64,000 nt of DNA. Source: Escherichia coli. GTDB taxonomy: Bacteria > Pseudomonadota > Gammaproteobacteria > Enterobacterales > Enterobacteriaceae. Below are positions 39,994 through 40,049 of this stretch, in pieces. Numbering within the stretch: the stretch's first letter is position 1; each line of letters starts with the position of its first letter. A program made the translations under genes and the position numbers. The stretch is from the NCBI RefSeq assembly GCF_003334315.1, contig NZ_QOWR01000025.1. The stretch is one strand, 5' to 3'. The notes beneath the pieces are model-generated. The model was given only the letters and a program-made list of their open reading frames with translations. It was not told the origin of the DNA and searched no databases.

Positions 39994-40049
39994 CCCGAAC
40001 TGACGGTTAATTCGGGCATTCCCCTCTACCCTTCGGGCTGAGGGGAATG
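39994..40049. terminator. tandem hairpins between convergent yaeH and cdaR
   Basis: Hairpin 1 cccgaactgacggttaattcggg (39994-40016) and hairpin 2 with a perfect 10-bp stem cattcccctc/gaggggaatg (40017-40049); they lie between convergent stop codons. Confidence 0.55.

Follow-up and report, generated by a model that had tools for sequence, protein, structure and literature searches.

A probable protective 3′ stem-loop of the yaeH mRNA, probably derived from a decayed BoxC element, between the converging genes yaeH and cdaR of Escherichia coli

How do the transcripts of yaeH and cdaR, two genes of Escherichia coli that converge on a short gap, come to their ends, and which part is played by the two hairpins that stand back to back in this gap? 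The locus has the K-12-like gene order dapD-yaeI-yaeH> <cdaR <degP in the analyzed window, the term used here for the whole 64-kb stretch of DNA under study. The tested stretch around yaeH and cdaR is 100% identical to K-12-type genomes, and published positions were transferred with the relation window = 223701 − K-12 coordinate, which was checked against the printed sequence. The gap between the two genes comprises positions 39993–40080 (88 bp) and contains no feature in the K-12 annotation. The minus-strand ORF at 40026–40148 (40 aa, TTG start), which overlaps the end of cdaR, was judged to be a mechanically predicted ORF. A scan of 39500–40500 with the Rfam covariance models at E ≤ 10 returned chance-level matches alone (E > 3, far under the gathering scores). 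We propose, with a probability of about 0.6, that the two converging genes share the gap as a 3′ region organized around a decayed BoxC element, in which hairpin 2 protects the Rho-terminated yaeH mRNA and hairpin 1 acts as a weak cdaR terminator. The architecture is that of an ordinary gene end, to which the evolutionary history adds a modest twist. The coordinates of its features are collected in Table 1.

Table 1. Features of the yaeH–cdaR gap and its surroundings, in window coordinates
Feature	Position	Strand	Basis
yaeH CDS (DUF3461 protein)	39606..39992	+	ORF list; RefSeq annotation of identical DNA
AUUAUUUA tract adjoining the 3′ side of hairpin 1 (cdaR-sense strand), overlapping the yaeH stop	39986..39993	-	terminator scan; sequence
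yaeH stop	39990-39992	+	
Hairpin 1, putative cdaR intrinsic terminator hairpin	39994..40016 (23 nt)	-	CCCGAA-N11-TTCGGG; folds, pair counts
Putative decayed type-A BoxC (PIT/TMECO)	40014..40053	+	profile search, orthologue alignment
Hairpin 2, 3′-terminal stem-loop of the stable yaeH mRNA	40017..40049	+	CATTCCCCTC-N13-GAGGGGAATG
Mapped steady-state yaeH RNA 3′ end	40052..40056	+	Term-seq; TRS
C-rich, G-poor stretch, candidate Rho-utilization region, antisense to the cdaR 3′ end	40053..40150	+	base composition
cdaR stop	40081-40083	-	
cdaR CDS (carbohydrate diacid regulator), converging on yaeH	40081..41238	-	ORF list; RefSeq annotation

The initial annotation of this DNA had described a 23-nt hairpin followed immediately by a second one with a perfect 10-bp stem. 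The sequence is as described, and the spacer between the two hairpins is 0 nt. The accompanying statement that they fill almost the whole gap is overstated, as they occupy 56 of the 88 bp and leave 31 bp on the cdaR side. Hairpin 2 consists of the perfect 10-bp stem CATTCCCCTC/GAGGGGAATG, a 2×2 internal loop and a CCC-UUC-GGG helix. With folding energies of −21.8 kcal/mol on the plus strand and −22.4 kcal/mol on the minus strand, it is equally stable on both. The 101-nt region is more stable than its shuffled versions (z = −2.4 on the plus and −3.0 on the minus strand), and on either strand one of 200 shuffles folded equally well. Only four places in the 64-kb window hold perfect hairpins whose stem reaches 10 bp (7 raw matches against 1.4 per shuffle), and all those placed against genes are intergenic. 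The others lie at 41357–41384, 46710–46736 and 56395–56421. The first of these is the degP terminator, with a Term-seq 3′ end at K-12 182347, and the second maps to the published erpA 3′ end (K-12 176994). A third exact occurrence of CATTCCCCTC, at 43906–43915, is devoid of a partner arm and corresponds to the chance level (3 found, 3.1 expected).

It is plausible that each of the converging genes is served by one of the hairpins. For cdaR, the terminator scan reported a terminator-like site on the minus strand, composed of CCCGAATTAACCGTCAGTTCGGG and the tail ATTATTTACG. The tail of hairpin 1 on the cdaR strand reads ATTATTTA; this U-rich sequence is the complement of the last codons and the stop of yaeH (CGTAAATAA). 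Read in the cdaR sense, hairpin 1 forms 8 bp including a G·U, with 4 G-C pairs and a 7-nt loop, and read in the yaeH sense it forms 6 bp and a small inner stem. Its folding energy is −6.8 kcal/mol on the plus strand and −8.6 kcal/mol on the minus strand, so that the stem-loop and U-tract are present on the cdaR strand with a weak hairpin. Pair counts were obtained from eight distinct, related long-type Escherichia sequences. Across them, 90.6% of the cells of hairpin 1 are paired on the cdaR-sense strand, versus 81.3% on the yaeH-sense strand. The pair 81/93 is a G·U in six of the eight sequences on the cdaR strand, which equals an A·C mismatch on the plus strand, and the pair 82/92 appears as C-G, U-A or U·G on the cdaR strand. 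Judged by these sequence features, hairpin 1 is a plausible candidate for the cdaR intrinsic terminator. Adams et al. 2021 list no cdaR-strand 3′ end between K-12 183620 and 183739, and the TRS tables hold no cdaR entry. The missing cdaR end is possibly explained by weak expression of cdaR in the media used.

On the yaeH strand, the RNA ends just past hairpin 2. The Term-seq data of Adams et al. 2021 (supplementary file 1) contain a 3′ end at K-12 183649 on the minus strand, which is window position 40052. This end is represented by 70,972 reads (LB, OD 0.4) and by 131,285 reads in a second listing, and it occurs three times in the file, which has one sheet per growth condition. The read counts are comparable with those at neighboring gene ends. 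The TRS resource of 2023, which uses RNAtag-seq data, gives a 'Primary' yaeH terminus at 183645 (window 40056, range 40048–40060) with a 65-nt 3′ UTR, and draws the same hairpin at −25.5 kcal/mol with 2 U in the downstream window. A strong yaeH-strand 3′ end is thus located 3 nt (Term-seq) to 7 nt (TRS) past hairpin 2. The yaeH 3′ end as such is already known, being present in published supplementary tables. Neither yaeH nor cdaR occurs in the SMRT-Cappable-seq and TERMITe supplements, and a literature search by the gene names yaeH and cdaR gave nothing relevant, its results being swamped by acronyms.

A sharp 3′ end 3 nt past a hairpin of −22 kcal/mol, between genes that converge, can be read in two ways. 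According to the initial annotation, the hairpins are probably a bidirectional terminator pair. Hairpin 2 would then stop the polymerase on the yaeH strand, either in a U-tract-less manner or through head-on collisions, and hairpin 1, which passes the minus-strand terminator scan, would stop it on the cdaR strand. Bidirectional termination is described in the literature on convergent genes. The sequence past hairpin 2 argues against this reading. The stem is followed by AGCCAGCG and no U-tract was found after it: the tail AGCCAGCGCC has 0 U in its first 8 nt, the TRS window holds the 2 U mentioned above, and the terminator scan gave no plus-strand site at the gap. A precise 3′ end cannot by itself tell termination from trimming.

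The RNA beyond hairpin 2 has the composition of a Rho-utilization region. The C/G ratio past the hairpin is 2.8–2.9 over 80–100 nt, compared with 1.05 at the end of yaeH. Adams et al. 2021 (supplementary file 2) report a Rho region with its best position at K-12 183583 on the minus strand (window 40118), which is 66 nt past the mapped 3′ end; the Rho score, obtained with bicyclomycin over 800-nt windows, is 5.05 (p = 1.9e-7). At this position 56 upstream and 13 downstream reads were counted without bicyclomycin and 99 and 116 with it. Downstream reads accordingly rise from 23% to 117% of the upstream reads when Rho is inhibited, an increase that could partly consist of antisense transcripts starting inside cdaR and not of yaeH read-through. 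This increase speaks against hairpin 2 as the stopping point of the polymerase, and so does the absence of promoter and terminator activity from PIT/BoxC elements in earlier reporter assays, as they are cited by Holder et al. 2015 (PMC4666352). Such an absence fits a barrier that does not terminate. Since the Rho data resolve 800-nt windows and antisense transcripts may start inside cdaR, the bidirectional pair retains some probability, and we consider it unlikely. What stands of the earlier claim is the yaeH-strand 3′ end past hairpin 2 and the terminator-like appearance of hairpin 1 on the cdaR strand. What does not stand is the part assigned to hairpin 2, which has no U-tract and is located upstream of a C-rich, bicyclomycin-sensitive region; a cdaR-strand 3′ end is likewise not listed.

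The features on the yaeH strand resemble a described class of RNA ends. According to Dar and Sorek 2018 (PMC6061677), Rho-dependent transcripts can have a precise end after a stable, U-less stem-loop with a rut site just downstream, and the stem-loop shields the RNA from PNPase and RNase II. Hairpin 2 is likewise a U-less, stable stem (−21.8 to −25.5 kcal/mol) with a precise 3′ end a few nucleotides past it, a C-rich and G-poor, rut-like region immediately 3′ of it, and read-through that is sensitive to the inhibition of Rho by bicyclomycin. At yaeH, a corresponding protection from PNPase and RNase II is predicted. In functional terms, hairpin 2 is probably an ordinary member of this class of protective 3′ stem-loops on Rho-terminated mRNAs.

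We propose that the yaeH-strand RNA polymerase reads through both hairpins and that Rho would then load just downstream, where the untranslated RNA is rich in C and lies antisense to the cdaR 3′ end, and terminate transcription within approximately 100 nt. The RNA would subsequently be trimmed back by 3′-to-5′ exonucleases until hairpin 2 blocks them. Such trimming would leave the sharp and abundant end 3–7 nt past the stem, so that the 3′ end of the yaeH mRNA would be both defined and stabilized. A polymerase arriving on the cdaR strand would meet hairpin 2 and afterwards hairpin 1 with its AUUAUUUA tract, which may act as a weak intrinsic terminator. For the annotation, this means that the yaeH mRNA gains a defined 3′ UTR of 60–65 nt that ends at a candidate protective stem-loop.

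The repeat known as BoxC, PIT or TMECO was reportedly studied by Bergler/Bachellier in the 1990s and by Hoyne and Maher in 2000. It is an E. coli repeat with the structure CCCTCNCCC-N3-6-GGGNGAGGG-N3-GGGNGAGGG, and for its loci, which are hypervariable, a function is not known (Holder et al. 2015, PMC4666352). The K-12 list comprises 23 copies, and the yaeH–cdaR gap is not among them. The three-block pattern of BoxC occurs in the window solely in two intact copies, at 59061 and 59125; hairpin 2, which reads CCCTC-TA-CCC TTC GGG-CT-GAGGG, has no third block and does not match it. The two intact copies form an inverted BoxC/TMECO pair at 59047–59157 (type A on the plus strand, 59061–59094; type B on the minus strand, 59113–59145). 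They are copies 1 and 2 of the published K-12 list, whose coordinates are about 9 nt off the window-to-K-12 mapping.

The relationship of hairpin 2 to BoxC becomes visible in its orthologues. The yaeH locus was collected from 80 species, and a long-type gap was found in three sister Escherichia, namely E. whittamii and MOD1-EC7003 (94 bp in both) and E1V33 (88 bp). The 94-bp gap contains CCCCTCTCCCCTTCGGG(A/G)AGAGGGTGAGGGG. A first BoxC profile was made from the 23 published TMECO cores (34–37 nt). It recovered the gaps of Escherichia sp. MOD1-EC7003 (E = 3.9e-5) and E. whittamii (E = 8.5e-4) and left the K-12 hairpin 2 undetected at E ≤ 10. A second profile, made from 11 K-12 type-A copies with 14-nt flanks, was used with nhmmer in a search space of 338 kb. 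The E values obtained with it were 2.6e-8 for E. whittamii, 2.3e-6 for MOD1-EC7003, 1.1e-5 for E1V33, 2.4e-3 for RMDEC465 and 0.016 for O157, and the K-12 copy (window 40014–40044) reached a marginal 0.12. The BoxC descent of hairpin 2 rests on the orthologues because the K-12 copy matches so marginally.

Alignment of the E. whittamii gap with BoxC shows a clean 6-nt gap at TTAGGG, and the 88-bp forms of E. coli and E1V33 are 6 nt shorter again than the 94-bp gaps (GGGAGA is missing). Flanks are common to both groups and read GGACAGTCCCCTC and TGAGGGGAACAGCC in the K-12 BoxC and GGGCAGTCCCCTC and TGAGGGGAACAAGCC in the orthologues. The core words and their order are also the same, with GTCCCCTC-N-CCC, a T-rich loop, GGG-N-GAGGGG and an AAC-type flank. 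Within the putative relic, block 1 corresponds to CCCCTCTACCC, the loop to TTCG, the fused remnant of blocks 2 and 3 to GGGCTGAGGGG and the flank to GAATGAGCC; its left flank is overlapped by what is the 3′ arm of hairpin 1 in plus-strand coordinates. Hairpin 2 differs from BoxC in its central N, which is 2 nt (TA/CT), and in the flanks, which extend the stem to a perfect 10 bp. The alignments and profile scores support hairpin 2 as a decayed type-A BoxC that would have suffered two 6-nt deletions in the GGG-rich blocks and lost the third (triplex) block. The element would thereby have lost 12 nt in two steps and turned into a plain, very stable hairpin, and flank substitutions in E. coli appear to have lengthened the stem to its perfect 10 bp. 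The K-12 copy itself is no longer a recognizable member of BoxC. It can be flagged for annotation as an unlisted, degenerate copy. The BoxC ancestry of hairpin 2 is a modestly new finding.

With the third GGGNGAGGG block and the N3 loop missing (12 nt), hairpin 2 cannot form the PIT/TMECO triplex. This bears on a possible role at the DNA level, in which the perfect 10-bp inverted repeat would be a protein-binding site, a cruciform or a triplex and might serve, for example, as a topological or replication barrier of the kind proposed for REP and PIT. The ancestral BoxC does form an intrastrand triplex and stall DNA polymerase, both in vitro, but in vivo a triplex was not found with intact copies either (Holder et al. 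2015, PMC4666352), and the triplex block is deleted in E. coli. The arms are 13 nt apart, the site is downstream of both genes, and no binding protein is known; the G·U-type substitutions point to selection on RNA. We regard a DNA-level role as very improbable, and nothing supports the earlier idea of a protein-binding palindrome.

The substitutions in hairpin 2 were followed in the same eight Escherichia sequences. Three pairs are changed on both sides (C-G / U·G / U-A; U-A / G-C; C-G / U-A), and the covariation score was reached by 9–20 of 500 shuffles, a result from eight related sequences that is supportive of stem maintenance and does not amount to proof. For several outer pairs of hairpin 2 the minus strand gives the better pairing (G·U at 37/75 and 38/74), so that selection on hairpin 2 may act on either strand. 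All six E. coli variants sampled have an identical 10-bp stem, and their flanks vary.

Like other BoxC copies, which often lie between convergent genes, hairpin 2 is intergenic. Type-A copies between converging genes in K-12 (NC_000913.3) include those of tauD/hemB (388.7 kb), aaeR/tldD (3390.5 kb), frlR/yhfS (3504.9 kb), zntA/tusA (3608.7 kb) and yjdP/phnP (4314.3 kb). The position of the RNA 3′ end just past the block 1/2 hairpin is also shared with some intact copies: Term-seq 3′ ends lie 3–5 nt past this hairpin at the BoxC or BoxC-like K-12 sites 847200 (minus strand), 3781065 (plus strand) and 3959467 (minus strand). These ends give a hint, modestly new as well, that RNA 3′ ends are a general feature of BoxC hairpins. 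A wider proposal, which we put forward tentatively and would not bet on, is that BoxC/PIT elements in general are RNA 3′-end barriers capping Rho-terminated transcripts between converging genes. The yaeH copy would then be an exaptation in progress, in which the triplex block was lost, the RNA hairpin was kept and lengthened, and an ancestral intrinsic terminator was replaced in two thirds of E. coli. If this is true, the replacement would have made termination of yaeH dependent on Rho where it had been intrinsic, and antisense transcription into cdaR would be altered. The locus offers a concrete and testable example of a dispersed repeat that may have been retained as an RNA 3′-end element after loss of its defining triplex feature.

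The distribution of the gap within E. coli was surveyed in 5426 complete genomes with a permissive threshold (up to E ≤ 10). The 88-bp gap is present in 3566 of them, at one place per genome even at E ≤ 10. Hairpin 2 as a repeat dispersed within E. coli was rejected on the basis of this single copy. It shares the intergenic location with BoxC/PIT/TMECO but not, in E. coli, the dispersed, multi-copy occurrence. The suggestion in the initial annotation that the stem could be a repeat thus holds historically, for a decayed BoxC, and not for the present single-copy element. Metagenomes and viral sequences were also scanned for both 10-bp arms of hairpin 2. All 14 metagenome matches with the 13-nt loop and the E. 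coli-type inner sequence have yaeH/cdaR flanks, so that E. coli-type matches represent the yaeH/cdaR locus, and most of the others belong to an unrelated palindrome family from soil. The soil palindrome is 29 nt long and near-perfect (CATTCCCCTCCTC-GCA/TGC-GAGGAGGGGAATG) and was found on soil-metagenome contigs at 42 loci in many flanking contexts, with about 56% G+C and as many as 4 copies in 11 kb. This palindrome seems to represent a dispersed repeat family of its own, unrelated to hairpin 2, with which it shares the 10-bp arms by chance. BoxC-like multi-block elements with CATT and AATG loops between CCCTC/GAGGG blocks were seen in metagenome sequences of other organisms, an example being CCCTCACCC-CATT-CCCCTCTCCC-loop-GGGAGAGGGG-AATG-GGGTGAGGGG. 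Judging from such elements, the BoxC-like motif family is broader than the E. coli consensus.

The remaining 1784 E. coli genomes that have the locus (about one third) carry an unrelated gap of 53 bp. Among the carriers are the B2 strains ATCC 11775, S88, ST131 and E2348/69. This allele contains a classical terminator, GCCGGGT-N8-ACCCGGC followed by TGTAATTTTG, and between the two stop codons it has zero alignable sequence with the 88-bp allele. The canonical intrinsic terminator of the 53-bp allele is at the same position as hairpin 2 and presumably does the same job for yaeH; the 88-bp allele differs from it in having no U-tract after hairpin 2. Outside E. coli, the short allele is found in E. 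albertii and the long allele in E. whittamii. Because both alleles are also found in other Escherichia, the gap dimorphism suggests an old polymorphism or recombination. The two-allele gap is, like the BoxC ancestry, modestly new. It constitutes a natural two-allele system in E. coli, with a candidate Rho-dependent end plus hairpin on one side and a classical intrinsic terminator on the other, and lends itself to the question of whether the expression of either gene depends on how transcription is terminated between a converging pair. Current understanding is not overturned by any of these results.

Across the 80-species set, small palindromic repeats have a hotspot in the yaeH–cdaR gap. REP/PU units are present in the same gap in Citrobacter, Pseudescherichia, Kosakonia and others, GCCGGGT..ACCCGGC units in Citrobacter, Enterobacter and E. 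albertii, and an intact BoxC, in either orientation, in Enterobacter, Pseudocitrobacter and strain RIT714. The remaining species have plain terminators. An assignment of hairpin 2 itself to REP/BIME (PU) was rejected, as the motif GCC(G/T)GATG...CATC(C/A)GGC is absent from the E. coli gap. REP/BIME elements act as mRNA 3′ stabilizers, as Newbury, Higgins et al. reportedly found in 1987. The likeness to hairpin 2 lies in their being dispersed extragenic palindromic repeats in the 3′ untranslated region that block 3′ exonucleases, as hairpin 2 is proposed to do; hairpin 2 is from a different sequence family.

This exchange of one palindromic repeat for another (REP/PU, GCCGGGT..ACCCGGC, BoxC either way) could mean that the gap is neutral, that hairpin 2 is nothing more than a selfish repeat in decay, with no function under selection, and that the RNA 3′ end is a by-product which any stable hairpin would cause. 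The absence of the element from one third of the E. coli genomes, with their 53-bp gap, agrees with such neutrality, as do the polymorphism of hairpin 1 at 4 sites within E. coli and the hypervariability of BoxC loci with no known function (Holder et al. 2015, PMC4666352). Yet hairpin 2 survived two deletions, the three pairs noted above changed on both sides, and its 10-bp stem stayed constant in the six E. coli variants while the flanks varied. Furthermore, every species examined keeps some stable hairpin in the gap, which suggests that a hairpin is needed there, though its identity need not be conserved. A neutral gap with an incidental RNA end is, on balance, improbable, and protection of the yaeH mRNA by hairpin 2 is the preferred reading. 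The gap on the other side of the gene, upstream of yaeH, also contains hairpins: a two-block BoxC-like hairpin, CCCTCTCCC-N5-GGGAGAGGG, is located there in Kosakonia, Phytobacter and some Enterobacter, and a plain terminator with a GC-hairpin and a T-run in other species.
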